The notes under the pieces: model-generated
Told to the model about the DNA's origin: nothing
What the model saw: only the letters and a program-made list of their open reading frames with translations
The model's database searches: none
Source of the DNA: Spirochaetia bacterium
Lineage (GTDB): Bacteria; Spirochaetota; Spirochaetia; SZUA-6; Bin103
Direction: 5' to 3'
Assembly: GCA_965208575.1 (NCBI GenBank)
Contig: CBDBOV010000006.1
Span: forward strand, 736,001-800,000
DNA: 64,000 nt
Shown: positions 34,547 through 55,800 of the stretch, piece by piece
Position numbering within the stretch: position 1 is the stretch's first letter
How the letters are laid out: each line of letters opens with the position of its first letter
Made by a program: the position numbers and the translations under genes

Positions 34547-34735
34547 AGGTAACTCCGTTTGTTTGATTTCTGAGAGTATTGCGTAGCGGCTTACCGGATT
34601 ACCGCTCCCTGGCTACCCTCACGCCCGCAACGCGGGCGGCCACTGAGAGTCAACTGCGTAACGCGCGCGGCGTGTGACTCGGCCGGGTTCACGCCGCGCG
34701 CGTCCAGGGTTCCTTTAGTATCATTTTGCACCCCC
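34547..34735 (-). promoter_or_regulatory. Conserved structured 5' leader of SBP gene, copy A
   Basis: Homologous to 45937-46127 and 55713-55800; several stems. Confidence 0.6.
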
Positions 34736-35063
34736 GTTTCTGTGGACTTCGGCAATTCTCGGCGGGCGGTTGTCAGGGAAGGAGAGTGTCATAGTCGTTG
34801 ACGCACGTGAGCTGCACGATCACTTCTTGAAATGGAACACGATGAAAACCGATGCACAGGCATCGTCTGCCCGCCCGCCCTTTCGGACCAGGCACAGCCA
34901 TACCCAGATGTAACCGCGATTGACTGCATCCACCCCACTATGACATCCGCCCCGGTGGAGGTCAACCACGCGCATTGACTCATCAACATTGCCTACCTTG
35001 CCTACCCGACAGAGGCTGCCGGCACGAGGCCAGAATCATGACGAGCGCTATGTGGCCCCGACG

Positions 35064-36704
35064 TCAGCCGTCGGCCAGCTCGAACGCCGTCACGTTGCGC
35101 GTCCGGCGGCTGAGTTCCACTCCGATCAGGTGGATGGGCTCACCCCGCCCCCGGTACTTGTCCGCGTAGCCCCGCTCCCGCAACTGCGCCAGCGCCGACC
35201 CCGCCGCCGCCAGCTCGGCTACCTTGAACTCGAACAGGTACACGTGCCCGCCGGTCCTCACCGCCATGTCCAGGCGCCCGTGGCTGCTCGACTCCTCCAC
35301 CGCGATCTCGTACCCCAGCGCCGCGAAGTACGAATAGAAAACGCTCGCGTAGTACCCCTCGTACTGCGCGATATCGTTGTTTGTGTGCCATTCGTAGGGA
35401 ATGCTCGCGAAGAACGCGTGGAACAGCTCCTGCAGCCCCGCGCAGTCGTGCGTGGAAAGCAGCCGTTGCAGCCGCATGCTGTTCGCCGTCTGCTGCTCCA
35501 CGTCCTGCACCAAGTGGCGCAGCAGGTGCTCGTTCAGGCTCTGGCGCACCTCCCGGTTCGGGTAGCCCAACCGATACAGCACCTTGCCGCCCAGCTCCTC
35601 TTCCCCCGTTACCGTCAGGTAACCGGTCTGGAACAGCAACGCCTGCGTGCCGATCTGGCCCACGTCGAACCTCGACAGCAGTTCCATCGTTCCCACCATT
35701 CGGTCCAGCGACACCGACGCCACCCGCCGCTCGAACAGCAGGTCCACCAGAAACGCCGGCGTCCCGGTCTCGAACCAGTGCGCGGCAAACTCGCGGCTGT
35801 CGAACAGCAGCAGCACGTCGTACGGGTTGTACACCTTCTCCTCGCCGCGCCAGCGGTAGCCGTTGTACCACTCGCGGATCCGTTCCCGGTCCAGCCCGGC
35901 CAGTTCCGGCGCGAACACCGTGTCCAGATCCGCGTCCGTGTAGCCGCAGATTGACGAGTAGCGCCGATCCAACGTGAGATCTGTGAGATTGTTCAACTGC
36001 GAGAAGAGCGCCCCACCGGCGGCGCCTTCGGCCTCGCCGGTGGCCCATCCCGTCCTTCCGCCCAAGAAACTTCCACGGAAGTGTCTTGGGCGGTTTACCT
36101 TGGAGAACTTGCTGATGCCGGTGAGGAACGTGAACCGCACGTGGGCGTCCGAGTCCTTGATCACCCCGTACAGCCCGCGCAGGTAGTCGCGGTTGGCACG
36201 CGCCGCCTCGGGTTCCTCCAACGCGTCCAGGATCGGCTTGTCGTACTCGTCCACCAGCACCACCACCCGCTGCCCCGTCTGCCGATGCAGCGTGCGCAAC
36301 AGACGGCGCAAGCGCGGCGCCGCGCCGCCGTCGTGGGATGCAATGCCCGCCGCCTCCTCCAGGTCCTGCAACTGGAATGCCACGTCCTCGTGCAGCGTCG
36401 CGGGCTCGGTGAAGCTGCCGCTGCCGAAGCTCAGCCGCACCACCGGATGCCGCTCCGACCAATCGTGGCGGTCGTGGATGTAGAGCCCCGCGAACAACGC
36501 CTCGTTGCCCTCGAACAGCTCCTTCAGCGTGTCCAGAAACAAGCTCTTGCCGAACCGCCGGGGCCGCGACAGGAAGTAATGTGTGCCCCCGCGGAGCAAC
36601 CGCTCGATGAAGGCGGTCTTGTCCACGTAGTAGCAGTCCTGCTCCCGCAGCTTGCGGAACGTCTGTATCCCGATCGGCAGTCTGCGCCGCGCCACCGGTT
36701 TCAT
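35064..36704 (-). CDS. AAA-ATPase-like + PD-(D/E)XK nuclease protein
   Basis: LPIGIQTF, YVDKT, SRPRRFGKS, VLVDEYDKP, C-terminal GRLD...FEFK; carries a 28-aa in-frame insert. Confidence 0.88.
   Translation of the reverse strand: MKPVARRRLPIGIQTFRKLREQDCYYVDKTAFIERLLRGGTHYFLSRPRRFGKSLFLDTLKELFEGNEALFAGLYIHDRHDWSERHPVVRLSFGSGSFTEPATLHEDVAFQLQDLEEAAGIASHDGGAAPRLRRLLRTLHRQTGQRVVVLVDEYDKPILDALEEPEAARANRDYLRGLYGVIKDSDAHVRFTFLTGISKFSKVNRPRHFRGSFLGGRTGWATGEAEGAAGGALFSQLNNLTDLTLDRRYSSICGYTDADLDTVFAPELAGLDRERIREWYNGYRWRGEEKVYNPYDVLLLFDSREFAAHWFETGTPAFLVDLLFERRVASVSLDRMVGTMELLSRFDVGQIGTQALLFQTGYLTVTGEEELGGKVLYRLGYPNREVRQSLNEHLLRHLVQDVEQQTANSMRLQRLLSTHDCAGLQELFHAFFASIPYEWHTNNDIAQYEGYYASVFYSYFAALGYEIAVEESSSHGRLDMAVRTGGHVYLFEFKVAELAAAGSALAQLRERGYADKYRGRGEPIHLIGVELSRRTRNVTAFELADG
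36009..36092. repeat. 84-bp double-hairpin element inserted in frame
   Basis: CCACCGGCG...CGCCGGTGG and CCGCCCAAGA-AACTTCC...GGAAGT-G-TCTTGGGCGG; interrupts SKFSKVx|LFSxLNN. Confidence 0.75.
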
Positions 36705-36935
36705 CTTACCCCGTGGAGGTCGCGCCCTCTCCCGCCCGGTAGTGCGGGCGGCCCGTCGATCTCTTCCATAACCGTGCGTGGCTCCCGTCGCCCTGAATGA
36801 TAGCATCGCCGCCACCACCGGTACACCCGCGAGGCGCTGTCCGCGATGATGGGTGCCGTGGGTGTTCGGACCAGTCGTCCAAGCGGGTAACGGAGGCTTC
36901 TCTCCGGCGGTAGGTGCCGGTACGTTGGAAACAGG

Positions 36936-38399
36936 ATGAGTAGCCTCGACACCCTTCCCGCAACAGCTCACACGACAGCGGATACCACTGCGGCGGAGCC
37001 CAGCTTCAACGAGGGGCTGGCGCTGGCGGTGGACCGGGCGCTGCGCCACCTGGACCTGCCGCCAGGCCTGCCGGAGCAGATCAAGGCGTGCGACTCGGTG
37101 CTGCAGTTGCAGTTCCCGGTGCGGCTCGACGACGGCGTGCTGCACATCTTCCGCGGCTGGCGCGCCACGCACAGCTCGCACTCCCTGCCGGCCAAGGGCG
37201 GCATCCGCTACGCCACCTGCGTCGACCAGGACGAGGTGGAGGCGCTGGCCGCGCTGATGACCTACAAGTGCGCGCTGGTGGACGTGCCGTTCGGCGGCTC
37301 CAAGGGCGGCGTGCGGCTGGATCCCGGCCGGTACTCGGAGCGCGAGCTGGAGGCGATCACGCGCCGCTTCGCCCGCGAGCTGATCTCGCGCGGCTACCTG
37401 AGCCCCGGCGGCAACGTGCCGGCCCCCGACATGGGCACCGGCGCACGCGAGATGGGCTGGATCGCCGACGTGTACCGCACCATCCACCCGGAGGAGATCA
37501 ACGCGCTCGCGTGCGTGACCGGCAAGCCGGTCACCTCCGGGGGCATACCGGGCCGCACCGAGGCGACCGGGCGCGGCGTGCAGTTCGCGGTGCGCGAGTT
37601 GTTCCGCCGTCCGGAGGACCTGGCGCTGGCCGGCCTGGACGGCGGGCTGGAGGGCAAGCGGGTCTTGGTGCAGGGGCTCGGCAACGTCGGTTACCACCTG
37701 GCCCGCTACCTGTCCGAGGAGGACGGCGCGCTGGTGGTCGGCGTGATGACGCGCGAAGGCGCGGTGCTCGACGACGGCGGCATCGACGTTGCCTCGCTGC
37801 GCGCCCACCTGGACGAGTACGGCGGCGTCGCGGGGTTCCCGCGGGGGCGCACCGACGTGGATGCCGACGCGTTCCTGGCCACCTCCTGCGACCTGCTGAT
37901 CCCGGCGGCGGTCGAGGGCCAGATTCACGCCGGCAACGCGGCCCGCGTGCAGGCCCGGCTGGTGGTGGAGGCGGCCAACGGCCCGGTGACCTACCGCGGC
38001 GACGAGATTCTGCGCCGGCGCGGCATCCCGGTGCTGCCCGACCTGTTCGTGAACGCGGGCGGGGTGACCGTGTCCTACTTCGAGTGGATCAAGAACCTGT
38101 CGCACATCCGCTTCGGGCGCATGGACCGCCGCCTGGACGAGGGCCGTGGCGCGCGCATCGTCGGTGCGCTGGAGCAGATGACCGGGCGCCCGGCGGACGC
38201 GGCGCTGCGCGCCGAACTGGTCAGCGGCGCCGACGAGCTGACGCTGGTGCGCTCAGGCCTGGACGACACCATGCGGCAGGCCTACGACGAGATCAGCGAC
38301 ACCTTCCGCCACGGCGACGGCATCGACGACTTCCGCACCGCCGCCTACGTGGTCGCACTCCGCAAGATCGCCAACACCTACTTCGACCTCGGCATCTAG
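36936..38399 (+). CDS. gdhA: Glutamate dehydrogenase (Glu/Leu/Phe/Val family)
   Basis: KGGIRY, MTYKCA, PFGGSKGG, VPAPDMGT, ATGRG, QGLGNVG, EAANGP, NAGGVTVSYFEW. Confidence 0.93.
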   Translation: MSSLDTLPATAHTTADTTAAEPSFNEGLALAVDRALRHLDLPPGLPEQIKACDSVLQLQFPVRLDDGVLHIFRGWRATHSSHSLPAKGGIRYATCVDQDEVEALAALMTYKCALVDVPFGGSKGGVRLDPGRYSERELEAITRRFARELISRGYLSPGGNVPAPDMGTGAREMGWIADVYRTIHPEEINALACVTGKPVTSGGIPGRTEATGRGVQFAVRELFRRPEDLALAGLDGGLEGKRVLVQGLGNVGYHLARYLSEEDGALVVGVMTREGAVLDDGGIDVASLRAHLDEYGGVAGFPRGRTDVDADAFLATSCDLLIPAAVEGQIHAGNAARVQARLVVEAANGPVTYRGDEILRRRGIPVLPDLFVNAGGVTVSYFEWIKNLSHIRFGRMDRRLDEGRGARIVGALEQMTGRPADAALRAELVSGADELTLVRSGLDDTMRQAYDEISDTFRHGDGIDDFRTAAYVVALRKIANTYFDLGI

Positions 38400-38403
38400 G
38401 CAT

Positions 38404-38793
38404 CTAGCAGCCCGTGGCGAATACGCCGGGAATGTCGTCGAAATGAGCGTCCATGGTGACGAGTTGCGCGCCCAGTTCCAGGGCGATGGCCGCGATCCAG
38501 ATGTCGTTGGTGGGCAATGGCGTGCCCTGCTGCTTGAGCTTGCCGACCAACATGCCGTAGCGCTCGGCCGCGTCCCTGGTCACGGCGGCGACGGACACGC
38601 CCGGCCGACGAAGGAATTCGTCCAGTGCAGCGACATTCATGCGCGCACGCGACCCCATGCGAAAACCGGCGAACAGCTCGCCCAGGACGATGCTGGGAAT
38701 GGCTACCTCGTCCGCCGTTTCGACGAGGTCGATGACATCGGCGTCGCCGCGCTTGAACGCGGAATATGCGTTGGTGTCCAGGCAGATCCTCAT
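38404..38793 (-). CDS. vapC: VapC-family PIN toxin
   Basis: ICLDTNAY, VLGEL, PTNDIWIAA, TMDAHF. Confidence 0.9.
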   Translation of the reverse strand: MRICLDTNAYSAFKRGDADVIDLVETADEVAIPSIVLGELFAGFRMGSRARMNVAALDEFLRRPGVSVAAVTRDAAERYGMLVGKLKQQGTPLPTNDIWIAAIALELGAQLVTMDAHFDDIPGVFATGC

Positions 38794-39044
38794 CGCTCCC
38801 ACATCTCGTCGTCGATTTGATCGAACACTCGCGTATTGGCTTCGAACTCCGCTGCTTCCGCATCGCTCCAAGTCCCGGCGAGGTCCGACACGTCACGCTT
38901 CCGGCCGCTCCCGCCGCCGAGATGGAGCGACTCCATCAAGACGCCGATGATCGTTCTGTTGAGGCTCTTGTTCTGCTCGCTTGCAAGCTCGCGCAATCGG
39001 TCATCGAGCTCCTGCGGGACATCGCGCAACGTAATCTGACTCAT
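38790..39044 (-). CDS. FitA/VapB-like ribbon-helix-helix antitoxin
   Basis: MSQITLRDVP..L...A....SLN; ATGA overlap with vapC. Confidence 0.85.
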   Translation of the reverse strand: MSQITLRDVPQELDDRLRELASEQNKSLNRTIIGVLMESLHLGGGSGRKRDVSDLAGTWSDAEAAEFEANTRVFDQIDDEMWER

Positions 39045-39236
39045 GCCTATGCCTTCATCGCTTCACTCTACCGAGTCACCCTGGCACACCACCGGGCGCC
39101 CCGTCAACTCGCTCATCGTCACGCGGCGGTGGCGGATGGGTCGCGCTGGTGCGGCAATCCTGCCGTCCCTGCCGTCCCCGCCTGCCGTGTGGGGGTTGAC
39201 GGATCGGGCGGTTGACGCTTATGTGGGGCCGTGCCG

Positions 39237-40286
39237 ATGACCACGCGCGCCGCCATCCAGACCGCCAGCGGCCAGCCGCTCATCATCGATGAGCTCGATA
39301 TTCCCGATCCGCGCCCCGACCAGGCGGTCCTGAAGCTACTCGCCAGCGGGATATGCCATTCGCAGGTCCACGAGTTGCACGATGCGCTGACGCGGCCGAC
39401 CGCGTTCGGCCACGAGGCCACCGGCGTGGTGGTGCGGGCCGGCAGCGAGGTGACGCGGGTGCGGGAGGGCGACCGCGCCATCGTCACCTGGGTGCGGCAC
39501 CAGCCGCTGCCGATGGGCCGGAACGACCGCCCGTGCGGCGCCACCTACCGGGGCAGCCCCATTCCGTGGCCGCACTTTACCTGGAGCGAGCACACCATTG
39601 TCTCGGAACAGTACCTGGTGCCGATCGCCGCTTCGGAGCCGGCCGACCTGTGCTCAATCATCGGCTGCGCGGTGCTGACCGGCGCCGGTGCGGTGATCCA
39701 CACCACGCGGGTGCAGCCGGGCGACTCGGTGGCGGTGTTCGGGGCCGGCGGCGTGGGGCTGGCGGCGATCCGGGCGGCGGCGATCCGGGGCGCCGATCCG
39801 CTCATCGTGGTGGACCTGCGCGCCGACAAGCTGGAGCTGGCCCGCGAGTTCGGCGCCACGCATGTCGTAAACGCGAGCGACGTCGACCCGGTGGAGGCGG
39901 TGGTGGACCTGAGCGGCGGCGGCGTCGACTACGCGTTCGACGCGATCGGCGTGCGGCAGACCACCGAAACGATCAACGAGGTCACGCGGCCGGGGTCGAT
40001 GGGCGCCGGCAACGAGGGCGGCACCGCGGTCCTTATCGGGGTGCCCGGTAACGAGATGACCCTGAACCCGCGCGCCATGCTGTCGGCGCACCGCCGTTAC
40101 GTCACCAGCTTCGGCGCCTCCAACCCCGACCGCGACTTCCCGATCTTCCTGCGCTGGTACCGGGACGGCCTGTTCCCGCTCGACCGGCTGGTCACCGACC
40201 GCTACCGGCTGGAGCAGATCAACGAGGCGTGCGCGGCACTCAAGGCCGGCCAGGTAATGGGCCGCGCCATCCTGGAGTACCAATAG
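39237..40286 (+). CDS. Zn-dependent alcohol dehydrogenase
   Basis: GICHS, GHEATG, GCAVLTG, FGAGGVG, GVDYAFD. Confidence 0.9.
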   Translation: MTTRAAIQTASGQPLIIDELDIPDPRPDQAVLKLLASGICHSQVHELHDALTRPTAFGHEATGVVVRAGSEVTRVREGDRAIVTWVRHQPLPMGRNDRPCGATYRGSPIPWPHFTWSEHTIVSEQYLVPIAASEPADLCSIIGCAVLTGAGAVIHTTRVQPGDSVAVFGAGGVGLAAIRAAAIRGADPLIVVDLRADKLELAREFGATHVVNASDVDPVEAVVDLSGGGVDYAFDAIGVRQTTETINEVTRPGSMGAGNEGGTAVLIGVPGNEMTLNPRAMLSAHRRYVTSFGASNPDRDFPIFLRWYRDGLFPLDRLVTDRYRLEQINEACAALKAGQVMGRAILEYQ

Positions 40287-40310
40287 AGTAGGGTAATGAA
40301 GGAGCGTGCG

Positions 40311-42068: not shown

Positions 42069-43001
42069 TTATTTCCGTTTCCTGGTCGCAGCGCCGTAAC
42101 TGCCCTCACCCCCTCGCAGCCGCGGGTCGAGCAGGTCCCGCACCGCGTCGCCGAACATGTTGAGGCAGTACACCGTCACCGTCAGGAACAGCCCCGGCCA
42201 CATCGCCAGCCGCGGCGCCACCTCCATGAACTCACGCCCTTCCCGGCTGAGCAGACCTCCCCAACTGGGAACCTCTACTGGCAGACCGAATCCCAGGAAG
42301 CTCAAGCTGGCCTCACTCATAATCACCCCTCCGACGCTGATGCTGAAGATGATGATCAAGACAGGCATGATATTGGGCAGGACGTGGCGCATCAGTGTCG
42401 CGGTGCCGCCGCTGCCAATTGCCGGGGCCGCCAGGAAATAGTCGTTCTCCTTGATGCCGATAACCGCGGACCTGACTATTCTCGAGCTGCCGATGCCTCC
42501 TGTTATCCCCAGGACCAGTATTATCTGCAACACACCGCGCCCCGTTATGGACATCACGGTCAACAAGATGAGCAGCCCGGGGAAGGCCATCCAGGCATCG
42601 ACAAATCTCTGCACAGCCAGGTCCAATTTGCCACCAAGGAATCCTGAGATGCCGCCTATCAGGGTAGCGACCACCACATTGATAGCGGTCGCCGCCAGAC
42701 CGACAAATATGGAAAGACGAGCCCCTGCGATGATGCGGCTCAAGAGGTCTCTCCCCAACTGGTCGGTGCCCAGCAGATACCGGGCTGATGAGCCCTGCAG
42801 CCTGTCTGCGAGGTGCATTTCCGCGTGTGGATAGGGTGCCAGAGCATCGGCAAAGATGCTGACGAGAATCAGTATCAATATGATGATCCCGCTGACCGTA
42901 CCGAGCGGCTTCTCCTTGACCATTCTGATAGAGAAATCGGCCAGTTGGGAACGTCTCTTTGCTGCGATTGCTGCTGATGGTAGCCCGACTGCGTCGCTCA
43001 C
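42069..43001 (-). CDS. Peptide ABC permease, DppC type (cassette B)
   Basis: LLGTDQLGRD, DLLDPRLRG. Confidence 0.92.
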   Translation of the reverse strand: MSDAVGLPSAAIAAKRRSQLADFSIRMVKEKPLGTVSGIIILILILVSIFADALAPYPHAEMHLADRLQGSSARYLLGTDQLGRDLLSRIIAGARLSIFVGLAATAINVVVATLIGGISGFLGGKLDLAVQRFVDAWMAFPGLLILLTVMSITGRGVLQIILVLGITGGIGSSRIVRSAVIGIKENDYFLAAPAIGSGGTATLMRHVLPNIMPVLIIIFSISVGGVIMSEASLSFLGFGLPVEVPSWGGLLSREGREFMEVAPRLAMWPGLFLTVTVYCLNMFGDAVRDLLDPRLRGGEGSYGAATRKRK

Positions 43002-43010: not shown

Positions 43011-44024
43011 CTAACTGTAGCGGACCCTGGGGTCCAAATAGAAATAGACCACATCGATGGCCAGGTTGACTGCCAAGACCCCGGTGGCGAAAAACAGATT
43101 CACTCCGGAGACCACCGGGTAGTCTCGCTCGGTGAGGGCGAACACCATGAGGCGACCTATCCCGGGCAGGTTGAATATGGTCTCCATGATGACGGAGCCA
43201 CCTATCAGGATAGGCAACTGCAGACCTATCAAGGTAACCACCGGGATGAGGGCATTCTTGATGGCGTGCCGCACAATAACGACCCTCTCCTTGAGCCCCT
43301 TGGACCAGGCGGTCCTGATATAGTCTTGCCTGAGCACCTCCAGCATCATGGTGCGGGTCAAGCGCATGGTCGCTGCGGCCGAGGCAGTCCCCAGAATCAG
43401 GCTGGGAACGAATAACCCGGCGAGACTTCCCAGTGGGTCTTCGATAAAAGGAATGTATTCCAGAGGGGGCGCCCAGCCCCACCATATTACGGGGAAGATC
43501 ATGACCATCAGGGCCAGCCAGAAGTTCGGCGTAGCCAGGCCGATGACGGCCGCGGTGCGCCCCAGGTAGTCGGCGGCGGTATCCTGGCGAATCGCCGAGT
43601 AGATGCCGACGGGCAGTGCTATCACGAGCCCGATGACCACCGCCATGATGCCAAGCTGAATGGTCACCGGCAATCTACCGAATATCTCCTGTTCTACCGT
43701 CACATGCGAGGTGACCAGTGATTCGCCAAGGGTGCCCTGGAGGAGACCTCTGAAGTGGGACTCACCGGTAATCCAGTCAGGGGTCGGCAACACTCCCATC
43801 CAGCGTCCGTACTGCACGTGGGCAGGCACGTCCAGTCCCAGCAAACGCTCCATGGCTTCACGGTCAATCGTGTCCATTCCTCCGAACCCTGAGATTTCCG
43901 CATTCAGCGCCATCATGTCTACCACGTTGCCCGGCAGGAAGCGGACCAAGAGAAAGACCAGAGTGGTCAATATCCACAAGGTAGGGATTATGAGCAGTAA
44001 CCGCCTGATGATATAGGCTCGCAT
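43011..44024 (-). CDS. Peptide ABC permease, DppB type (cassette B)
   Basis: EVLRQDYIRTAWSKGL; GVLPTPDWITGESHF insert. Confidence 0.92.
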   Translation of the reverse strand: MRAYIIRRLLLIIPTLWILTTLVFLLVRFLPGNVVDMMALNAEISGFGGMDTIDREAMERLLGLDVPAHVQYGRWMGVLPTPDWITGESHFRGLLQGTLGESLVTSHVTVEQEIFGRLPVTIQLGIMAVVIGLVIALPVGIYSAIRQDTAADYLGRTAAVIGLATPNFWLALMVMIFPVIWWGWAPPLEYIPFIEDPLGSLAGLFVPSLILGTASAAATMRLTRTMMLEVLRQDYIRTAWSKGLKERVVIVRHAIKNALIPVVTLIGLQLPILIGGSVIMETIFNLPGIGRLMVFALTERDYPVVSGVNLFFATGVLAVNLAIDVVYFYLDPRVRYS

Positions 44025-44109: not shown

Positions 44110-45936
44110 CTAAAAACCCATTGCTTCCTTCATCTCCTGGTCAATCCAGATGCGGGCTAAGTGTTTGTGTCCCTCGGAATAAGATCCCAGTTCGCCGTTA
44201 TAACCTTTGACCCACGGCTGCGTTGCCTGGTACTGGGGGGTTTCAGGCCCCACTATCTTGAAATGCTGTTCTGTGATGTACATGTTTATTTCTTTTGCCA
44301 GCCTATGCATCTCCTCGATGGTGGTAGCGGCCATGACGGCGTCAGCCATGGCGTCATATTTGGGGTCGTTCAAGTGGCCGGTGCTGAGATTGCCTTTATA
44401 GAATTGATTTGTCAGACGGTCGGGGATACCATACCTGAAGGCCGCTTCCCCCCAACGAATTATGTACCTGTCCTGATCTGGATCATTATACATCGCGGTG
44501 ACTTCGGCTGACCCACCAGCCAAGACATCAGTCTGCGTGTCCACGCCAATCTCGCGCCAGTATCCGGCGACCAATTGCGCATAGCTCACATCGTACCGTT
44601 CGAAGTAGCCCATGCTCATCGTGAACCTGATACCGTCGGCGCCGCGCGGATAACCGGCCGCATCAAGCAACGCTTCGGCTCCCTCCGGGTCATACCTGTA
44701 GGTTTTCTTGACCGCTTCGGGCCACTCCTCGAATGGCGTGCCAATGCCCGGCACATCATTGGCGAAATGTCCCTGCGGAGTCGCATCGCCATAACCCTTG
44801 AAGTAGGTAGCTACAATGGTCTCGAGGTCCAGTGCCATCTGCAGTGCCTGGCGCACGCGGAGGTCATTCAAGGGCGGTATGTCCATACGGACGATATAGA
44901 ATGCGTTATCGGACCGAAACTTGAACGACCACAGCTTGATTTCCGGGTCGGTCCGCTGCAGGCTCTCTATCTGGTCGATCGACCTTAATGTACTGGCGCC
45001 GGGACCTAGCATATCAACCTTACCCGTGCGCAGAGCCGCGAGACGGGTTGCTGACTCCGCCATCCGCAAGGCCCTTATCTCGTCAGCATAGGGCAGACGG
45101 TTCTCCGGGTATTTTTCGTCGAACCCCCAGTAGTTGGGAGTCTTGGTCCAGGTCCTGGAGCTACCTTCGACCACCTCCGTCAGCTCATAGGGTCCGGTGC
45201 CGACCGTGTTCCGCCAATCCTGATAGTCGCCGTGTTGCTCGATGACCTCCGGAGGCATTACCGTAGCCGATCCACCCCAGCCGTAGCCGATAAAGAGTTT
45301 CACGGCGCTGAGGTTTGGCCTCTCCAGCTTGACGACCATCGTATACTTGTCGGTGGCCGTTACCGATTCGATCGGCAAAGCTACGAGGTTACGTGCCGCT
45401 GGGGTAGGTTCGGCTTCACTGAACGCGGTCCCTGCCAACTTGTTCCCCAAATAGCGGTGAAAGTTGTATTCTACGTCCTCGGCGGTGAGCTCCCGGCCGT
45501 TCATCGGCGCCTTGTCATGCCAGTGAACGCCCCTGCGGATGTTGAAGATAATGGTGGTATCGTCGGGCGTTTCCCAGCTTTCCGCCAGTGCCCCTCCTAT
45601 GGCCCATGCAGGTGTCTCTGCGAAGATCCGCCAGTTCCAGACGTCCCTGTCGTTTCCCCAGTCCCACATGGCGAGCTGCTCGTTAACCAAGCCGGTGCTG
45701 TCTTTCGCGTGGCCGTACCAGTCATCAACGTTGGTGCCCCAACTGACCAGGCCGTAGGTTAGTGTCCCGCCATACCGCGGCGCCTCCACCATCTCGCCGG
45801 TGGTCGGGTCGAGCACCATTTCCTTCTCGGCGGCGGCTGCCGGCTCCTCGTCTGCGCCCGCGGCCCAGAGGCCGGTTGCGGTCAGAACCAGGACCACCGC
45901 AACCGCGAAGGTCCTCGCAACTTGTACAATAAGCAT
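44110..45936 (-). CDS. Family 5 substrate-binding protein (cassette B)
   Basis: Same motifs as the paralogs; GGAG RBS before ATG 45936. Confidence 0.92.
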   Translation of the reverse strand: MLIVQVARTFAVAVVLVLTATGLWAAGADEEPAAAAEKEMVLDPTTGEMVEAPRYGGTLTYGLVSWGTNVDDWYGHAKDSTGLVNEQLAMWDWGNDRDVWNWRIFAETPAWAIGGALAESWETPDDTTIIFNIRRGVHWHDKAPMNGRELTAEDVEYNFHRYLGNKLAGTAFSEAEPTPAARNLVALPIESVTATDKYTMVVKLERPNLSAVKLFIGYGWGGSATVMPPEVIEQHGDYQDWRNTVGTGPYELTEVVEGSSRTWTKTPNYWGFDEKYPENRLPYADEIRALRMAESATRLAALRTGKVDMLGPGASTLRSIDQIESLQRTDPEIKLWSFKFRSDNAFYIVRMDIPPLNDLRVRQALQMALDLETIVATYFKGYGDATPQGHFANDVPGIGTPFEEWPEAVKKTYRYDPEGAEALLDAAGYPRGADGIRFTMSMGYFERYDVSYAQLVAGYWREIGVDTQTDVLAGGSAEVTAMYNDPDQDRYIIRWGEAAFRYGIPDRLTNQFYKGNLSTGHLNDPKYDAMADAVMAATTIEEMHRLAKEINMYITEQHFKIVGPETPQYQATQPWVKGYNGELGSYSEGHKHLARIWIDQEMKEAMGF

Positions 45937-46127
45937 GCGTAACTCCATATATGGATTTCTTGAGAGTATTACGAAGCGACTTGTCGCTCCCTGGCTACTC
46001 TCACGCCGGCAACGCAGGCGGCCAGTCAGAGTCCAACTCACTAACAGCGCGCGGCGGGTGACTCACCGGGTTCACCCGGGCTCACGCCGCGCGCGCGTGC
46101 GGTTCTTTCAGTATCATCCTGCACCCT
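45937..46127 (-). promoter_or_regulatory. Conserved structured 5' leader of SBP gene, copy B
   Basis: Homologous to 34547-34735. Confidence 0.6.
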
Positions 46128-46426
46128 TGGGGTGAGGCCGCCGTAGGAGGCGGCGCAAGGTCACGCCGGGGGCGCCAGTATCGCGAGGCGTCTCGGGACC
46201 GGCTCGGCGACTCGAAAGGGCCGGCGCCACCAATAGCTGCGGCGACTGCGGCGGTGGTAAACGCGACGGCGTGCGCGGGGCTGCGCACGCCGCGGTCATC
46301 CGGAGCGGGTAGCTGTTTCTCGTATAAAGAGTTACGGGGGGGCTGATGCTTCACTGCGAGCCGGCAACGGCGCTGACTATCTTTCCGGCACGATGCGCCC
46401 ATCTATCAATTGCCCCAGTCAACCGT

Positions 46427-46455
46427 ATGCTCACACGCGCAGGCAAACTTGTCAA
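46427..46455 (-). promoter_or_regulatory. Putative sigma70 promoter facing the SBP operon
   Basis: TTGACA-N17-GAGCAT, conserved at 55905-55933. Confidence 0.45.
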
Positions 46456-46562
46456 CCGCCCACCCGTCCCGGCCGTCGCGGTCCGCCTGCCGTGGAGAAG
46501 ACTCTTGTATGCCAATATCTTCTGCGATAATCTGAGGGAGATTTCCGTATAGGAGAGTTATC

Positions 46563-47786
46563 CTGAATCTGATCCCGCGACCCCTGTACACCGAGCGCAT
46601 CCTGCCGTTCATGAACAAGCCGCTCATCAAGGTGATTACGGGAGTCAGGCGAGCCGGCAAGAGCGCGCTCATTCAACTGCTGATCGACCACCTCACCGCG
46701 GGCGGCGTCCCGGCCGAGAACATTCTGAGCATCAACATGGAATCGCTGGAGTTCGAGGCGCTCGGCGACTACCGGAAACTCTACGACCATGTCCGCCGCC
46801 ACCTGCCGGACACCACGGAGTCCTACCTGTTCGTGGATGAGGTGCAAAACGTCGTCGGGTGGGAGCGGGCGATCGCGTCGGTTCTCGCCGATGGGTTGGC
46901 GGACGTCACGATCAGTGGGTCGAACGCGCGGCTACTGTCGTCGGATCTTGCCACCCGGCTCACGGGGCGGTACGTCGAGATTCCGGTGTATCCGTTGCTG
47001 TTCTCGGAGTTCATCCGATTCCAGGGAATAGAACCGAGCTCACCCGATGTTCGGGGGGCCTGGGACCGCTTCCTGCGCTATGGCGGGTTCCCGGGCATTC
47101 GCTACTTGAGCCTGGAGGATGAGCCGGTATTCGCCTACCTCAACTCGCTCTACCATACGATCGTGCTGAAGGACGTGGTCAATCGGCACCAAGTCAGAGA
47201 GCCGGCCCAGCTCGATGGCATTACGCGCTTTCTGTTCGACAACTGCGGCAACATCACCACGGCCAAGCGCATGACCGACTACATGAAGGCGCAGGGGCTG
47301 AGCGTATCCCTGTCGCGCGTGCAGAACTACCTCTCCTACCTGGAGGAGGCGTTCCTGGTATTCCGCTGCCGGCGGTACGACCTGAAGGGCATGCGCCACC
47401 TGGAACTGTACGACAAGTTCTACATGACCGACATCGGCATCCGGCACGGCCTGGTTGGCTACCGGGACAACGACCTTGCCGGGTTGCTCGAGAACGTGGT
47501 CTACCTGGAACTGCGCGCCCGTGGATACACGGTCAGCGTCGGCAAGTTCCGGGACTACGAGATCGACTTCGTCGCCGAGCGGCGGACCGAACGACTCTAC
47601 GTCCAGGTGTGCTACTCGCTGTCGAGTGAGGAGACGGTCGAGCGGGAGTACCGGTCACTCAGGCGGGTGCCCGATAACCATCCCAAGCTGGTCCTGTCAC
47701 TCGATACCGTGCAGCCGGCCAACCGTGGCGGCATTCGATGGCAGAATCTTGTCGATTTCCTGCTCAAGAACCCTCCGGTCGGGTGA
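46563..47786 (+). CDS. AAA_14 ATPase with DUF4143-type C-terminus
   Basis: ITGVRRAGKS, FVDEVQ, SGSN, YGGFPG, KFY..DIG, LENVVYLEL, EIDF; first ATG at 46611, probable CTG start at 46563. Confidence 0.85.
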   Translation: MNLIPRPLYTERILPFMNKPLIKVITGVRRAGKSALIQLLIDHLTAGGVPAENILSINMESLEFEALGDYRKLYDHVRRHLPDTTESYLFVDEVQNVVGWERAIASVLADGLADVTISGSNARLLSSDLATRLTGRYVEIPVYPLLFSEFIRFQGIEPSSPDVRGAWDRFLRYGGFPGIRYLSLEDEPVFAYLNSLYHTIVLKDVVNRHQVREPAQLDGITRFLFDNCGNITTAKRMTDYMKAQGLSVSLSRVQNYLSYLEEAFLVFRCRRYDLKGMRHLELYDKFYMTDIGIRHGLVGYRDNDLAGLLENVVYLELRARGYTVSVGKFRDYEIDFVAERRTERLYVQVCYSLSSEETVEREYRSLRRVPDNHPKLVLSLDTVQPANRGGIRWQNLVDFLLKNPPVG

Positions 47787-49883: not shown

Positions 49884-49969
49884 AAGTGATCGACGTACTG
49901 ACCGTGGCTGCCTGACTGCCCTTCAACCGGGGCTTCGGCGTTGTCCCGAGCAGGGGGGAGGGTGCGCGG

Positions 49970-51763
49970 TCAGCGCCGCACCTCGTCGCAGAACACCAGC
50001 TCCCAGCCGTGGAACACCACGACCAGGCCGATGAAGGTCACCCCCGGAAACTGCCGCGCCAGCCGCTCATCCGCCAGGTAGCGCTCGAGCTGCGCCGTCG
50101 CCTCTCCGGCCGCCGCCGCCACGCCGGCGTCGTCCGCCGGCCCGCTGCGCTGCAAGCGCCCACGCCGCTTGAGGTACTTGAGCTCGATCAGGTAGCCGCG
50201 CTGCAGGTGCGGATAGCGCGCCACCAGCGGCTCGAGCGCGATGTCCGCGTGTCCCTTTCCCAGTTCCGCCTCCGACCGGAACACGTAGTGGTCGGTCACG
50301 CTCAGATAGGCGGCGAGGAATCCTAAAGCCCCGGTACGGGGCTCAAGCACCTTCTCGCCACTGATGTAGTCGCGTATTCCGGTCTGCCGGGAGATCGCCT
50401 CGCTCAGGAACTCCAGTACCGGTCGCCACCCGCCCTCGTTGGCCATCCGCATCATCAACTGCTCAAACCGGAACAGGTTTACTGAAAACACCCCCACGTC
50501 GCGGTAGGCGTCGCGCAGAAACCCGTACATCAGCCGCTTCACGGTCTGGTTCGGGATCGCCAGCCGGGGCACCCGCTCCACCACGTCGCGGATGCTCAGC
50601 AGTCCGAAGTAGTGCAGCAGGGAGAAGAAGTTCTCCTGCTTGGTGAGGTCCTTCAGCGGAAAGCCGGGCTGGATGCGGGTGTCCACCTGCTCCTCGCCGA
50701 TCAAGTCCCTCAGCAGGTCGAAGTTGCCGTTGAGCTGCCGCCCGGTCACCAGCAGGTGACGCAGCTTGCCGTAGTCGATGCGCACGTTGGTGTCGATCAG
50801 TTCATCCGGCACCTCTCGGTTGGGAATCGAGTTGTCCAGGTAATACAGCACCATGTCGGTGTTGTAGAGATCGGTCTCGGCTGCCTTGGCGAAGCGGTAG
50901 CCGTTGTACCATTCGCCCATGATGCCCATGGCGGTCTCGACCTTCTGGTTGAACACGCCCAGGCCGCGGTACGTGTCGACCAGGTGCCGGACCTCCGCCT
51001 CGGTGAAGCCGACCATCTCGTTGAAGTCCGGGTGCAGGCTGATGTTCTTGCCGATGTTGAAGCCGCTGGTGACGTCGTCCATCGTGATCGGCGATACGCC
51101 GGTGATGAACAGCCGTTCCAGCCCGCCGCCGCTGCGCCCCGCCCCGGACTTGAGGGTGGCGAAGAAGTTGCGATAGAAGCCGCCGCCGTGGGTGAACGAG
51201 TGGTACGCCTCGGCGCCGTGGTACGCCAGCACGGTGTTGGCGAAGTTGTCGTACTCGTCGATGATCACGTACAGCGGGATGTCGTGGTCGCCGGCGTACC
51301 GGAACAACACCCCGAGCTTGGCGCTAATGGAGGGCCGCGTGAGGATGCGCTGCACCGCCGCGTCGGGAAACAGGTCGGGATGCCGCTCCAGCGTCCCCTG
51401 CAGCTCCGTGTGGCAGTAGATCTCGAACTCCCGCTCCAGGGTTTCCAGCTTGTCGTTGACGGTTGAAAAGTCGAAGCGCAGGGTGACGTAGCGGCTCTGT
51501 TCCCCGGTCGGGTCTCCGCCGATGTCGGTGCCGGCGAAGGTGGCGTCGAAGCCTTCCGCCCAGAAGCGGTCGTAGTAGTTCTCCAAGATCGACGCCCAGA
51601 GGGACTTGCCGAAGCGGCGCGGGCGGATCAGGAAGGCGTAGCGCTCCTCCTCGAGGCGGCGCAGGAAGCGGGTCTTGTCGACGTACAGCCACCGGTTCAG
51701 GCGGATGCGCCTGAAGTCGGCCTCGCCGTAGGGAATGCGCGGGTGCGTGGGTGGCGTTCTCAC
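49970..51763 (-). CDS. AAA-ATPase-like + PD-(D/E)XK nuclease protein
   Basis: IPYG..DF, YVDKT, RPRRFGKSL, IIDEYDNFAN, FITGVSP, GHADI, IELKY. Confidence 0.88.
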   Translation of the reverse strand: MRTPPTHPRIPYGEADFRRIRLNRWLYVDKTRFLRRLEEERYAFLIRPRRFGKSLWASILENYYDRFWAEGFDATFAGTDIGGDPTGEQSRYVTLRFDFSTVNDKLETLEREFEIYCHTELQGTLERHPDLFPDAAVQRILTRPSISAKLGVLFRYAGDHDIPLYVIIDEYDNFANTVLAYHGAEAYHSFTHGGGFYRNFFATLKSGAGRSGGGLERLFITGVSPITMDDVTSGFNIGKNISLHPDFNEMVGFTEAEVRHLVDTYRGLGVFNQKVETAMGIMGEWYNGYRFAKAAETDLYNTDMVLYYLDNSIPNREVPDELIDTNVRIDYGKLRHLLVTGRQLNGNFDLLRDLIGEEQVDTRIQPGFPLKDLTKQENFFSLLHYFGLLSIRDVVERVPRLAIPNQTVKRLMYGFLRDAYRDVGVFSVNLFRFEQLMMRMANEGGWRPVLEFLSEAISRQTGIRDYISGEKVLEPRTGALGFLAAYLSVTDHYVFRSEAELGKGHADIALEPLVARYPHLQRGYLIELKYLKRRGRLQRSGPADDAGVAAAAGEATAQLERYLADERLARQFPGVTFIGLVVVFHGWELVFCDEVRR

Positions 51764-51916
51764 TGCCGAAGCCTGGGCACTGACTCTATCGTCTCCAAGG
51801 AGCGAGGTGCAATGGCGGCAATCGAGTCGGCACAGGAGAGAATCGTGTTCAGACCGTAGACTCCGATAGAGCTGATCGATCAGCGCCGCGTCGTGCCGCT
51901 GCCACGGTCAGCACAG

Positions 51917-52822
51917 TCACACGGCATCGGCGCCGAGACGACCGCCGCCACCGCGCAGCCGCGGGTCGAGCAGGTCTCTGAGGGCGTCACCCAACATGTT
52001 GAAACTGTACACCACGGTCGTCAGGCACAGCCCCGGCCAGAGCGCCAGCCAGGGGGCCTGCTCCATGTACTTGCGCCCTTCCCGGCTGAGCATGCCGCCC
52101 CAGTCAGGAATGCCCGGTGGCAGACCGTAGCCGAGGAAGCCCAGAGCAGCCAACGACATGATCACCCCGCCGATGTTGATCGAGAACACAATGATGACCG
52201 GTGCCATGATGTTGGGCAGGACATGGCGGCTCAGGATCTTGCTGGTGGGGGTGCCCACGGCCTGGGCCGCCAGAAAATAGTCGTTCTCCTTGATGCCGAT
52301 CACCGCGCTTCTCATGACCCTCGAGCCGCTGATGCCTCCGGCGATCCCCAGGACCACGATGATCTGGGGGAGACCCCTTCCCACAATGGACATGATGGTG
52401 AGCAAGAGCAACAATCCCGGAAACGCCATCCAGGCATCGACAAAGCGCTGCACCGCCAGATCCAATCTGCCCCCGAGAAATCCGGAAGTGCCGCCGACCA
52501 GGACAGCGACCACGATATTCAGCGCAGTCGCGGCCACACCGACGAGGACGGAGATACGAGCCCCGAAGATCAGCCGGCTGAGCAGGTCTCGTCCGGCCTG
52601 GTCGGTACCCAGAAGATACTGCGACGACGGGCCTGCAAGCCTGTCGACCAGGTGAATCTCCTTGTGGGAATAAGGCGCCAGCACGTCGGCAAAGATCGCC
52701 ACCAAGAGAAATATCACTATGATGATCCCGGACAACGTACCGAGCGGCTTCTCCTTGACAAGCCTGATCCCGAAATCAGCCAGCCGGGAACGTCTCCTTG
52801 GATCACCCATGCTCGCCGTCAT
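51917..52822 (-). CDS. Peptide ABC permease, DppC type (cassette C)
   Basis: LLGTDQAGRD, DLLDPRLRGGG; last codons clipped relative to paralogs (ADAV* versus ADAARSV*). Confidence 0.92.
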   Translation of the reverse strand: MTASMGDPRRRSRLADFGIRLVKEKPLGTLSGIIIVIFLLVAIFADVLAPYSHKEIHLVDRLAGPSSQYLLGTDQAGRDLLSRLIFGARISVLVGVAATALNIVVAVLVGGTSGFLGGRLDLAVQRFVDAWMAFPGLLLLLTIMSIVGRGLPQIIVVLGIAGGISGSRVMRSAVIGIKENDYFLAAQAVGTPTSKILSRHVLPNIMAPVIIVFSINIGGVIMSLAALGFLGYGLPPGIPDWGGMLSREGRKYMEQAPWLALWPGLCLTTVVYSFNMLGDALRDLLDPRLRGGGGRLGADAV

Positions 52823-52825
52823 CCG

Positions 52826-53836
52826 TTATTGATACCGAACCCTGGGGTCCAAGAACGCATAAATCACGTCGATCATGAGATTGATCGCCAAAACCGCGGT
52901 AGCAAAAATCAGGTTTATCGCGGAGACGACCGGGTAGTCTCTGCCATCGAGCGCATCCACAAACATACGGCCTATCCCCGGCAGAGCGAATATTTGCTCC
53001 AGGATAACGGAGCCACCTACCAGCAGGGGGAGCTGCAGACCGACCAGCGTAACGACCGGGATGAGGGTATTCTTGATGGCGTGCCGCATGACCACTACCC
53101 GCTCCCTGAGGCCCTTCGACCAGGCCGTCCTGATATAGTCCTGCCGGAGCACCTCCAGCATCATGGTGCGCGTCATCCGCATCGTGCTGGCAGCCAGGGC
53201 GGTGCCCAGAATCAGGGCCGGAATCAGGAACATCCCGAGATTCCCCAGCGGGTCTTCGGCGAACGGAATCAGCTCTATCGGCGGCGACCAGCCCCACCAG
53301 ATTGCCGGGTAGAGCATGACCATGACTCCGAGCCAGAAGTTCGGCGTTGCCAAGCCGATGATGGCGGCGGTGCGGCCTACGTAATCGGCGACGGTGTCCT
53401 GGCGGATCGCCGAGTAGACGCCGACGGGCAGGGCTATGACCAGCCCAATTACAATTGACAGAGCACCAAGCTCGATGGTTACCGGCAATCTCCCGATGAT
53501 GATCTCCTCTATCGGAAAAGGAGCGCCAAACAGTGATTCGCCAAAGGTGCCCTGGAGGAGACCTCTGAAGTGGGACTCACCGGTAATCCAGTCAGGGGTC
53601 GGCAGCACTCCTAGCCAGCGTCCATACTGCACGTAGACCGGCACGTCCAGTCCCAGCATACGCTCGAGCGTGTCGCGGTCCAGGTCGGCACCCGCGGCAT
53701 GCCATGCTTCCATCTCAGCCACCATTACGTCTATTACATCGCCGGGGATGAAGCGGACCGCGAGAAAGACGATGATGGTCAATATGAACAGGGTGGGGAT
53801 GATGAGCAACAACCGCCTGATGAGATAGCTTCTCAT
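52826..53836 (-). CDS. Peptide ABC permease, DppB type (cassette C)
   Basis: EVLRQDYIRTAWSKGL. Confidence 0.92.
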   Translation of the reverse strand: MRSYLIRRLLLIIPTLFILTIIVFLAVRFIPGDVIDVMVAEMEAWHAAGADLDRDTLERMLGLDVPVYVQYGRWLGVLPTPDWITGESHFRGLLQGTFGESLFGAPFPIEEIIIGRLPVTIELGALSIVIGLVIALPVGVYSAIRQDTVADYVGRTAAIIGLATPNFWLGVMVMLYPAIWWGWSPPIELIPFAEDPLGNLGMFLIPALILGTALAASTMRMTRTMMLEVLRQDYIRTAWSKGLRERVVVMRHAIKNTLIPVVTLVGLQLPLLVGGSVILEQIFALPGIGRMFVDALDGRDYPVVSAINLIFATAVLAINLMIDVIYAFLDPRVRYQ

Positions 53837-53912
53837 GGTGTTGGTACCCCAAGTATGGGAGCTGGAAAGCGCGCTCGCAAGCGACCGCCACCCAGCTCCG
53901 CAAGAGTTACTG

Positions 53913-55712
53913 CTAATTCCCCATCGTTGCTTGCTTCAGCTCACTATCAATCCAGAGGCGGGCCAAGAAGGTATTACGTTCACCACGTCCCATACCTGCT
54001 TCACCGAAATAACCCTCGACCCACGGCTGGCTCACGTGGAACTTGGGGGCGTTGGATTTGACCAGACCCCAGTGCTCCCTTATCGTGATCTCATCGACCT
54101 GTCGATGCAAGCTCTTCCACTCCTCCAGGGTGGTGGCAGCTTGCATGGCGGCAAACAGGGCGTCAGTTACCGGGTCGTTCCCCTTCGCCTTGTTCTTTTG
54201 GTGTTGTTGAGTCAGGTAACCGGCGCCGCCGAGTATCCCATATGCCCAATCCCCTAACGCCCACTCGTGCGTGTCCGCGCCATGTATAGCGGAAATCTCA
54301 GCGGCAGTATGGGCAAAAAGCTCGCTGTCAACTCCAATGGCTTCGAAGTACCCCATGACGATTTCACCATACGTCGGATCGTACCGGTCGAAATGGGAGA
54401 TCTTGAGCTTGAATCGATAGCCATCGGCGCCGCGCGGATATCCAGCCGCATCAAGCAACGCTTCCGCGTCATCCGGGTGATACTCATACTCATGCTTGAC
54501 CTCGTCGGGCCACTCTTCATATGGCCAGGAAAACTCCCCTGGGCCATCTTGCTGTACTAACCCATACGGTGCTGGATCTCCCCAACCCTTAAGGAAGGTG
54601 GCGGAAATCGTCTCGCGGTCCACTGCCATCTGCAGTGCCTTGCGCACATCGACGTCGCTAGTGGGTGACAAAGCCCAGTTAAAAAAGTATGCGCCCGCTA
54701 TCCAGCTATAAACGGGCCACACCTCGATTTCAGGGTTGGTCCGCTGGAGGCTCTCCAAATCGTCGATATTGTATATGACAGCGTCGCCGGTGTTACTCAG
54801 CATATCAATCTTTCCCGTGCGCATTGCCGCCAGACGTGCTGACATGTCCGGTATCAGCAAGGACCTCAATTCGTCAATATAGGGTAGGCGGTTTTCCGGG
54901 AATTTTTCGTCGTAACCCCAGTAGTCAGGATTCTTCTCCCAGGTTGCCGAGCTGCCCTCCACGAAATCAGTCAGTCGAAAGGGCCCGGTGCCGACCACGT
55001 TCCGCCAATCCTTGGCGTCGCCGTATTTCTCGATTTGCTCAGGGGCGTGCGCAACCCAGTAGTTGTTGAGCATTTTCCCCAGCCCATCGGGGTGAGACTG
55101 CTTCAGCTTGATCTCAACCGTCCATTGGTCGGTGGCCGTTACCGATTCGAACTGTAGACCGAAGAAGATAACACCCGCACTGGGGCTAGGTCCGTCTTCC
55201 GTGAAATCGCCCAGACCCAAATAGCGGTGATAGTTCCATTCGACGTCATGGGCATCGAACTCCCGACCGTTCACCGGCGCCTTGTCATGCCAGTGAACGC
55301 CCTGGCGGATGTTCCAGATGAACGTTGTGTCGTCGGGCATTGACCAGCTTTCAGCCAGAGCCCCTGTAGTCATCTCCGGGGTCACAATGCGGGAGTCTCT
55401 ACCGCCCCATATATCCCTGGTGAGTCCCCAGTCGGCGAAGGACAGCCCCTCATTGACGCCACTGATCACGTGAGCCGCCCAGCCAGGTTTCCACCAGTTG
55501 TCAATACCGGGAGGAAAGACAACAACGCCCTGCGTGATTGTCCCGCCATACTGTGGCGCGGTCCACGTCATGCCGGTGGCGGGGTCGAACACCGTTTCCT
55601 TCTCGGTAGCCGCCGCCGGCTCCTCTACTGCGGCAGCGGCCCAGAGGCCGGTGGCGGTCAGGACCATGACCAACGCAACCGCGAAGGTCCTGGTGATTGT
55701 TACCATATTCAT
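53913..55712 (-). CDS. Family 5 substrate-binding protein (cassette C)
   Basis: PQYGG, WHDKAPVNGR, GTGPF, ARLWID. Confidence 0.92.
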   Translation of the reverse strand: MNMVTITRTFAVALVMVLTATGLWAAAAVEEPAAATEKETVFDPATGMTWTAPQYGGTITQGVVVFPPGIDNWWKPGWAAHVISGVNEGLSFADWGLTRDIWGGRDSRIVTPEMTTGALAESWSMPDDTTFIWNIRQGVHWHDKAPVNGREFDAHDVEWNYHRYLGLGDFTEDGPSPSAGVIFFGLQFESVTATDQWTVEIKLKQSHPDGLGKMLNNYWVAHAPEQIEKYGDAKDWRNVVGTGPFRLTDFVEGSSATWEKNPDYWGYDEKFPENRLPYIDELRSLLIPDMSARLAAMRTGKIDMLSNTGDAVIYNIDDLESLQRTNPEIEVWPVYSWIAGAYFFNWALSPTSDVDVRKALQMAVDRETISATFLKGWGDPAPYGLVQQDGPGEFSWPYEEWPDEVKHEYEYHPDDAEALLDAAGYPRGADGYRFKLKISHFDRYDPTYGEIVMGYFEAIGVDSELFAHTAAEISAIHGADTHEWALGDWAYGILGGAGYLTQQHQKNKAKGNDPVTDALFAAMQAATTLEEWKSLHRQVDEITIREHWGLVKSNAPKFHVSQPWVEGYFGEAGMGRGERNTFLARLWIDSELKQATMGN

Positions 55713-55800
55713 ACGTAACTCCGTATGTTGATTTCTGAGAGTATTGCGTAGCGGCTTGCCGCTCCCCGGCTACTCTCGCGCCCGCAACGCGGGCGGCCGG
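55713..55800 (-). promoter_or_regulatory. Conserved structured 5' leader of SBP gene, copy C (proximal half)
   Basis: Homologous to 34547-34640 and 45937-46025. Confidence 0.6.

Follow-up and report, generated by a model that had tools for sequence, protein, structure and literature searches.

A multi-copy 5' leader with a conserved upstream reading frame ahead of solute-binding protein operons in one spirochaete genus: a candidate cis-acting RNA

Structured 5' leaders that contain a leader peptide are a known kind of element, and the leader described here shares features with several of the systems already characterized. It is found in three copies, A, B and C, upstream of three genes for solute-binding proteins (SBPs) within a 64-kb stretch of DNA (the window) from a sponge-associated Spirochaetia bacterium, whose genome comprises 6.5 Mb in 6 contigs, with 67% G+C and 95% completeness. 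The leader spans ~190 nucleotides and consists of a conserved core close to the ribosome-binding site (RBS) which, in copies A and B, is preceded by a long GC-rich stem and a short upstream open reading frame (uORF). An earlier note on this DNA had pointed to the three stretches as a possible cis-regulatory RNA; the element is larger than first described, as it includes the conserved uORF, and its copy number had also been missed. The reading that is somewhat favored here takes the three stretches as members of a multi-copy 5' leader, restricted to one genus, of SBP operons of the ATP-binding cassette (ABC) type; this leader would combine a cis-acting RNA with a leader peptide and place these operons under a common post-transcriptional control.

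In the leader-peptide and translation attenuators, such as those of trp/his, pyrBI, and ermC/cat, the position of the ribosome decides whether a hairpin is formed. The present leader resembles them in having a short open reading frame (ORF), with its own Shine-Dalgarno (SD) sequence, that overlaps one arm of a strong hairpin. Contrary to these attenuators, it has no run of regulatory codons (none is found in the consensus peptide, MILKEPHARAA), no U-rich terminator in copies A and B, and no predicted alternative pairing that would free or hide the main SD, and one single leader serves dozens of genes. In the erm/cat type, moreover, the main SD is sequestered and becomes opened by a stalled ribosome, whereas here its predicted accessibility stays the same, at 0.45 versus 0.45 across 60 copies.

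The stabilizers of 5' untranslated regions, including the ompA-type hairpins and STAB-SD elements, protect their transcripts against RNase J or RNase E/G. They share with this leader a long structured region on highly expressed envelope-protein mRNAs, with an RBS far upstream, but here the amino acids of the uORF peptide are conserved, and neither RNase J nor RNase E/G is found in the 95% complete genome, in which RNase Y and RpoN are present. Pseudoknot riboswitches such as SAM-II, preQ1, and glutamine-II are also similar in their compact fold, with a possible H-type pseudoknot just 5' of the SD, although no Rfam family matches this leader and its copies per genome are far more numerous. The upstream homology boxes of the paralogous lipoprotein genes of Borrelia, likened here by description, also come from a spirochaete and from paralogues of exported proteins, where an upstream region and the end of the signal peptide are spread by recombination. 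Those boxes are described as promoter or operator DNA, unlike the sense-strand RNA pairing and the uORF of the present leader.

Hence, the general kind of the element is known, but its sequence and fold match no described family. The leader is unusual in how many copies there are, in the conservation of its peptide at the level of amino acids, and in being linked to a signal-peptide cassette that recombines. Literature searches, which covered titles and the beginnings of abstracts, returned nothing on the leader element.

Copies and anatomy of the leader

In the source genome, 57 copies of the core are found by BLASTN with an 88-nucleotide (nt) core query, and 59 with a covariance model. All 57 BLASTN copies have the same orientation and lie directly 5' of an RBS with its ATG. 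In 56 of them the core is followed by an ORF of 80 amino acids or more, 51 of these being full-length (~600 amino acids), and an SBP-family ORF lies downstream of 58 of the 62 nhmmer matches. Dispersed repeats of the repetitive extragenic palindromic (REP) or miniature inverted-repeat transposable element (MITE) type occur in both orientations, in varied contexts and with terminal repeats; this reading fails here because all copies share one orientation (57/57) and a fixed distance from the SBP start codon. The N-termini encoded after the core are very similar to each other, with a hydrophobic segment that lacks a lipobox cysteine and, next to it, an acidic linker rich in Ala and Pro; the signal-sequence ends of the three window SBPs lie at 34500-34546, 45890-45936, and 55666-55712. 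A profile built from these SBPs matches 207 ORFs of the genome, of which 113 belong to the close subfamily; the core is present ahead of 55 of the latter. With 207 family-5 SBP ORFs in 6.5 Mb, this binding-protein family has expanded to an unusual extent.

The mean pairwise identity is 0.79 in the core, compared with 0.46 in the adjoining spacer and SD, 0.46 in the mature proteins, and ~0.5 at four-fold silent sites. The short stretches TGGC and TTGC in the core are nearly invariant. A linker of ~25 nt containing a TGACTC box precedes the core, which is separated from the SD by a poorly conserved spacer of ~15 nt.

Genes A, B, and C each encode a family-5 SBP (PF00496) and share 47-52% identity at the protein level, whereas the ~95 nt 5' of their ATG are far more alike and align with few differences, so the homology claimed for the three stretches, above that of the SBP bodies, is borne out. 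The parts of the three copies are as follows.

Copy A
34689-34737, minus strand: SD-like G-run and 11-codon uORF MILKEPWTRAA (uORF 34724-34689, start 34724, stop 34691-34689)
34663-34701, minus strand: long GC stem, with its 5' arm (34701-34689) formed by the final uORF codons and the stop, and its 3' arm at 34677-34663
34647-34653, minus strand: conserved TTGACTC box in the linker
34572-34643, minus strand: core, with GUGGC 34643-34639 (possible pseudoknot 5' strand), P1 34638-34622, P2 5' strand 34620-34614, GCCAG 34613-34609, P3 34608-34583 (long loop), and P2 3' strand 34578-34572
34544-34557, minus strand: SD (GGAG) and ATG of the SBP gene 32759-34546
32759-34546, minus strand: SBP_bac_5 gene A, then two permease genes (31622-32581 and 30679-31611)

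Copy B
46082-46130, minus strand: SD-like stretch and 11-codon uORF MILKEPHARAA (uORF 46117-46082)
46047-46094, minus strand: long GC stem whose loop is made of two 10-nt units (5' arm 46094-46082, 3' arm 46061-46047)
46029-46035, minus strand: box TGGACTC
45962-46025, minus strand: core, with CUGGC 46025-46021, P1 46020-46004 (one mismatch), P2 5' strand 46002-45996, GCCAG 45995-45991, P3 45990-45973, and P2 3' strand 45968-45962
45934-45947, minus strand: SD and ATG of the SBP gene 44110-45936
44110-45936, minus strand: SBP_bac_5 gene B, then two permease genes (43011-44024 and 42069-43001)

Copy C
55737-55804, minus strand: core alone, without uORF or long stem, with CUGGC/CCGGC 55804-55796, P1 55795-55779, P2 5' strand 55777-55771, GCCGG 55770-55766, P3 55765-55748, and P2 3' strand 55743-55737
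55710-55723, minus strand: SD and ATG of the SBP gene 53913-55712
53913-55712, minus strand: SBP_bac_5 gene C, then two permease genes (52826-53836 and 51917-52822)

The structural elements that the earlier note had described are all present on the minus (mRNA) strand: the P1 hairpin CGCCYGC-GTT-GCSGGCG (7-3-7), the P2 stem GAGRGTA...TACTCTC that encloses the P3 hairpin, the P3 variants (C has GGC/GCC, B has GAC/GTC, and the loop of A is longer), the long GC stem of A and B that is missing from C, and the 15 nt between the end of P2 and the GGAG. Its statement that no known riboswitch class could be recognized also agrees with the Rfam check, in which no family matched: Rfam 15 gives 0 matches in the 64-kb window at the gathering score, and leader B, searched at E values up to 10, gives only S15-Halobacteria, with 12.8 bits against a cut-off of 49.

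The uORF region lies 60-95 nt 5' of the core and is found in 50 of the 57 own copies and in 149 of the 157 distinct leaders from all genomes. An SD-like stretch precedes it in 138 of these 149, and the usual start codons account for 137 (109 ATG, 15 GTG, 7 TTG, and 6 CTG, with 12 others). Its length is exactly 11 codons in 108 of the 149, and it ends on TGA (124), TAG (17), or TAA (8). In codons 3-6, changes at the first, second, and third positions number 7, 17, and 93, respectively, those at the third position being nearly all synonymous (CTC/CTG, AAA/AAG, GAA/GAG, and CCN). Since the changes concentrate at the third position and are synonymous, the uORF is apparently translated, the substitution pattern being that of a translated frame.

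The final five codons of the uORF, together with its stop codon, form the 5' arm of the GC stem. This stem has 13 pairs, kept in 92-99% of cases and almost invariant, and a loop of ~10, 20-21, or 42 nt. The stop codon is at its canonical place in 117 of 140 copies, while in 2 of the 57 own copies one GC unit is missing and the uORF reads on for 40 codons into the core. A pairing between GAGUCA, on the 3' side of the stem, and the TGACTC box was considered and rejected, as its variants, judged by eye, are not compensatory. The orthologue of copy C in a congener (L068; silent-site identity 0.99) has the full leader; because this near-identical orthologue retains both parts, copy C has lost its uORF and GC stem recently, by replacement of the upstream sequence. 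The break of this replacement is located just 5' of the core (window 55796-55900 compared with L068).

Within the genus, seven of the ten other genomes contain the leader, with 41, 31, 81, 34, 5, 1-2, and 1 copies, and no copy is found in the remaining three, which are 81-95% complete. Beyond the genus, the search covered 13 genomes of its sister genus as well as the remaining families of the order, using BLAST of the full leader on 92 genomes and the covariance model on 61, and found no copy; two weak BLAST matches outside the genus (G027 and G011) are short, GC-rich, and without a model match. A 19-mer scan of a genome collection returned 14 stretches, 11 of them in the chromosome of one Spirochaetia metagenome-assembled genome (MAG) and one in a 4-kb contig filed under Acidobacteriota, whereas its matches in Streptomyces and Clostridiales have no model match. 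A loose 20-mer scan of metagenomes gave, among the matches listed, one real leader in 80 loci. The sequencing runs that contain leader sequence are sponge metagenomes and metatranscriptomes. A full-length leader (L186, 121 bits with model R1) also occurs on a 4-kb contig filed under an Acidobacteriota MAG, which is probably spirochaete DNA placed in the wrong bin.

Two large ORFs, at 35064-38105 and 49970-51763 (minus strand), are situated between the SBP operons of the window and hold AAA-ATPase_like (PF09820) and PD-(D/E)XK (PF08011) domains. In the first of them, ~470 residues ahead of the domains have no Pfam match.

Pairing and transcription

RNAalifold on a MAFFT alignment recovered P1 alone, and the structure evaluated here was then named by hand. 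The fraction of assigned cells that are paired is 84.8% for the 55 distinct copies of the own genome and 87.0% for the 99 copies of the congeners, compared with 31-56% for slid partners; these cells count sequences rather than independent events, and the alignment (A4) had been adjusted to the model. The own genome has 12 pairs with changes on both sides and the congeners have 15, values that are reached in 6 and 0 of 500 shuffles, respectively. In the congeners, P1 is paired in 93.9%, P2 in 94.4%, and P3 in 88.0% of cases, and a hairpin around the SD, termed P4, in 65.6%. P4, with the SD in its loop and the AUG in its stem, is consequently limited to a subset (62-66% paired) and was rejected as a general feature, as was a hairpin in the signal-peptide codons, of which only GACC/GGUC is common.

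The G-U pairs and the substitutions in P1 also favor the sense strand. G-U exceeds A-C by 85:33 in the own genome and by 141:47 in the congeners, that is, ~3:1. The 5' half of P1 shows C-to-U changes in 40 and 29 of 99 copies, whereas hardly any mirror changes occur on the 3' half. This asymmetry disfavors a palindromic DNA operator, as a symmetric operator would not give rise to it. The earlier note had left three readings side by side, namely a regulatory RNA, a palindromic operator, and a 5' recombination anchor. The first is the best supported of them, in that an RNA of the sense strand appears to fit the conserved pairing and the G-U excess better than a DNA operator; the second is disfavored, and the third holds as a process only, as discussed below.

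The CUGGC stretch that precedes P1 can pair with GCCAG, located between P2 and P3, in an H-type topology. This pairing is kept in 95.2% of the cells in the congeners, with no double change, and in 87% of the cells in the own genome, where two pairs are changed on both sides; copy C, with CCGGC and GCCGG, is one such case. CUGGC and GCCAG are the nearly invariant stretches that the nested model leaves unexplained, and it is plausible, from these comparisons, that the core folds as an H-type pseudoknot.

A second, sequence-diverged family of SBP leaders is present in the same genome (loci L192-L207, for instance L200, L201, and L203). Its members contain a helix of 7-12 base pairs (formed by GCCGCCCUCGC and GCGAGGGGCCGGCA) and a GAGAG/CUCUC helix, of which the 5' strand is enclosed by the former and the 3' strand is not, so that the topology is again of the H type, with variants such as CGGGAGUG/CGCUCCCG. 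In several members, a start-stop or a 3-codon uORF comes after an SD. The family has no Rfam match at E values up to 1. Yet another SBP leader of this genome, at a distance of 222 kb, has a uORF that contains seven units of a 10-bp repeat; it differs in sequence and repeat from the leader described here, and no model built for the latter matches it.

There is moderate evidence that the leader stems are transcribed. In four metatranscriptome studies of sponges, the SBP genes and the bin that holds leader B are covered by contigs; the depth is 259, 1787, and 375 in three of the runs and 2.8 in the fourth, and it drops to ~0 over the next 1.1 kb of upstream flank (46376-47500). Loose contig ends at 46118 (two studies) and 46033 (a third study) continue as paralogous leaders, with stem, uORF, and the SD of the latter. 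The uncovered parts of these contigs and the depth ranking of the genes were not taken as evidence. Upstream of leader A, at 34850-34965 (minus strand), there is a sigma-70-like site (TTGACC, 17 nt, CATAGT), followed ~70 nt downstream on the mRNA strand by a terminator-like hairpin, both being 5' of the uORF.

Alternative explanations

The leader might be explained by concerted evolution only, where a 5' module of ~440 nt, comprising promoter-proximal DNA, leader, and signal peptide, is copied between paralogues and the hairpins are mere passengers. The copying itself is clear enough. Two paralogues located 15.6 kb apart share an identical tract of ~440 nt around the core (-170 to +270), even though their mature proteins are only 48% identical. 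Several orthologue pairs with silent-site identities of 0.87-0.99 differ in both leader (0.71-0.74) and signal peptide, and the break lies close to where the latter ends. Leader identity correlates only weakly with mature-protein identity (Spearman 0.21, 1275 pairs), and silent sites in codons 1-20 are 0.85-0.92 identical, against ~0.5 elsewhere. Leader and signal peptide are thus evidently swapped between paralogues by gene conversion, and the recombination anchor of the earlier note stands to this extent, but it leaves unexplained that the core is conserved above its own flanks. Conversion should also homogenize the spacer between core and ATG, yet this spacer is 0.46 identical against 0.79 in the core. 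Neither does it account for the pairing that is kept with a G-U bias, nor for the synonymous variation at the third positions of the uORF. Furthermore, a genome with only 1-2 copies retains the leader at an orthologous locus that is saturated at silent sites: in this old orthologue pair, four-fold identity is 0.45 and the far-upstream sequence cannot be aligned, while the leader is 0.76 identical. Because of the difference between core and spacer, the substitutions that keep pairing, and the leader at this saturated locus, conversion alone is insufficient, and an explanation by concerted evolution only is unlikely. As far as these comparisons go, selection and conversion both occur. The conservation above the synonymous background expected in the earlier note is thus seen when the core (0.79) is compared with four-fold sites (~0.5), but not in recent orthologue pairs.

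A ligand-sensing riboswitch, in which pseudoknot, P1, and P3 would bind, as an aptamer, a global metabolite by which every SBP operon is tuned, is decidedly unlikely. The fold is compact and conserved and ends 15 nt before the SD, its crossing topology recurs in the second, diverged leader family, and no known class matches it. However, the same leader is found on 30-80 SBPs with ~46-52% mutual identity and probably different substrates; since one leader serves so many differing SBPs, the signal could not be the transported substrate. In addition, no alternative fold that could act as an expression platform is predicted, and conservation is so nearly total that no pocket residues can be distinguished.

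Control at the DNA level is very improbable. In this view, P1 would act as a palindromic operator; alternatively, TGGC...TTGC would be a sigma-54 promoter, served by the long inverted repeat as its enhancer site, and transcripts would begin near P2. P1 is indeed an inverted repeat (7-3-7), TGGC and TTGC hardly vary, and the genome encodes RpoN. Nevertheless, the P1 half-sites change asymmetrically, as expected of G-U pairs in RNA, the RNA contigs cross P1, the stem, and the uORF, and the coding-type pattern of the uORF is left unexplained. The sigma-54 consensus is TGGCAC-N5-TTGC, with its GG and GC doublets 10 nt apart. A sigma-54 promoter was rejected for the leader, in which the GG-GC spacing is 11 nt, compared with 10 in the 11 canonical-looking sites of the genome. 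One canonical-looking motif, on contig C4 (minus strand) near 360588, is directly followed by a long (CA)n run.

Finally, a heritable phase switch, where the (GC)n run or the 10-nt units of the loop would slip and thereby alter the uORF frame or the stem and toggle single SBP genes, is hardly credible: the loop lengths differ in steps (~10, 20-21, and 42 nt) and 2 of the 57 own copies are one GC unit short, but the number of 10-nt units cannot change the frame because the stop precedes them (117/140), most uORFs are of equal length (108/149), and the contigs examined show no within-population variation in the length of the GC run, itself a weak argument.

Proposed mechanism and meaning

According to the favored reading, that of a cis-acting leader RNA with a leader peptide, some 30-80 SBP operons per genome would be under one common post-transcriptional control. 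A ribosome translating the uORF, or terminating on it, would have to melt the GC stem, which may couple the translation status or a signal from the nascent peptide to the fate of the leader, be it its read-through, its processing, or its stability. Next to the RBS, the folded core could serve as a platform for a common factor or ligand. The 5' module of leader and signal peptide, for its part, would be separately homogenized and swapped among paralogues by gene conversion.

Thermodynamic folding predicts that the parts of the leader behave as independent modules. In 60 folded copies, no alternative fold appears when the uORF is blocked, and a relay from the uORF to the main SD was rejected since the accessibility of the latter remains unchanged. 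Together with the lack of a U-rich terminator, this means that neither classical attenuation nor an erm-type relay is supported. A leader bound by CsrA, through a GGA in the loop of the SD hairpin, was rejected as well, as PF02599 is not found in the 95% complete genome while the controls are positive.

Several observations weigh against the favored reading. The unpaired probability from SD to AUG is 0.45 in the free leader and 0.45 when uORF and 5' arm are blocked, and copies A and B have no terminator-like site between the uORF and the gene on the mRNA strand. The usual start codon is absent from 12 of the 149 uORFs, and in the oldest orthologue pair none is present at this position. The GC stem is nearly invariant, hence its pairing speaks neither for nor against a function, and the near invariance of CUGGC/GCCAG makes this pairing equally uninformative. 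Covariation rests on few independent events, because all copies belong to one genus and are young and homogenized. In recent orthologue pairs, the leader is no better kept than silent sites and is often replaced. Lastly, the RNA data consist of contigs without strand or 5' end, which may derive from paralogues.

A more specific version of the cis-acting leader is doubtful and is advanced here tentatively. The leader would represent a new class, consisting of an arrest-type or sensor peptide (MILKEP...) that ends in the GC stem and of a pseudoknotted RNA at the RBS, which would jointly switch 30-80 nutrient-uptake operons in spirochaetes that are symbionts of sponges and be spread to new paralogues by gene conversion. 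Should this be the case, a regulon would be wired through a repeated RNA module instead of a DNA-binding regulator.

As the organisms are uncultured, tests need surrogate hosts or in-vitro systems, for which the conserved leader peptide and the structured RNA of no known class offer a compact, testable pair. From an evolutionary point of view, regulatory sequence and export signal travel jointly as a recombining cassette. If functional, the leader would be among the most repeated cis-regulatory RNA modules in one bacterial genome, with 81 copies in ~4.9 Mb, and would show how a symbiont living on host- or seawater-derived organics keeps the uptake repertoire of 207 family-5 SBP ORFs under one control.

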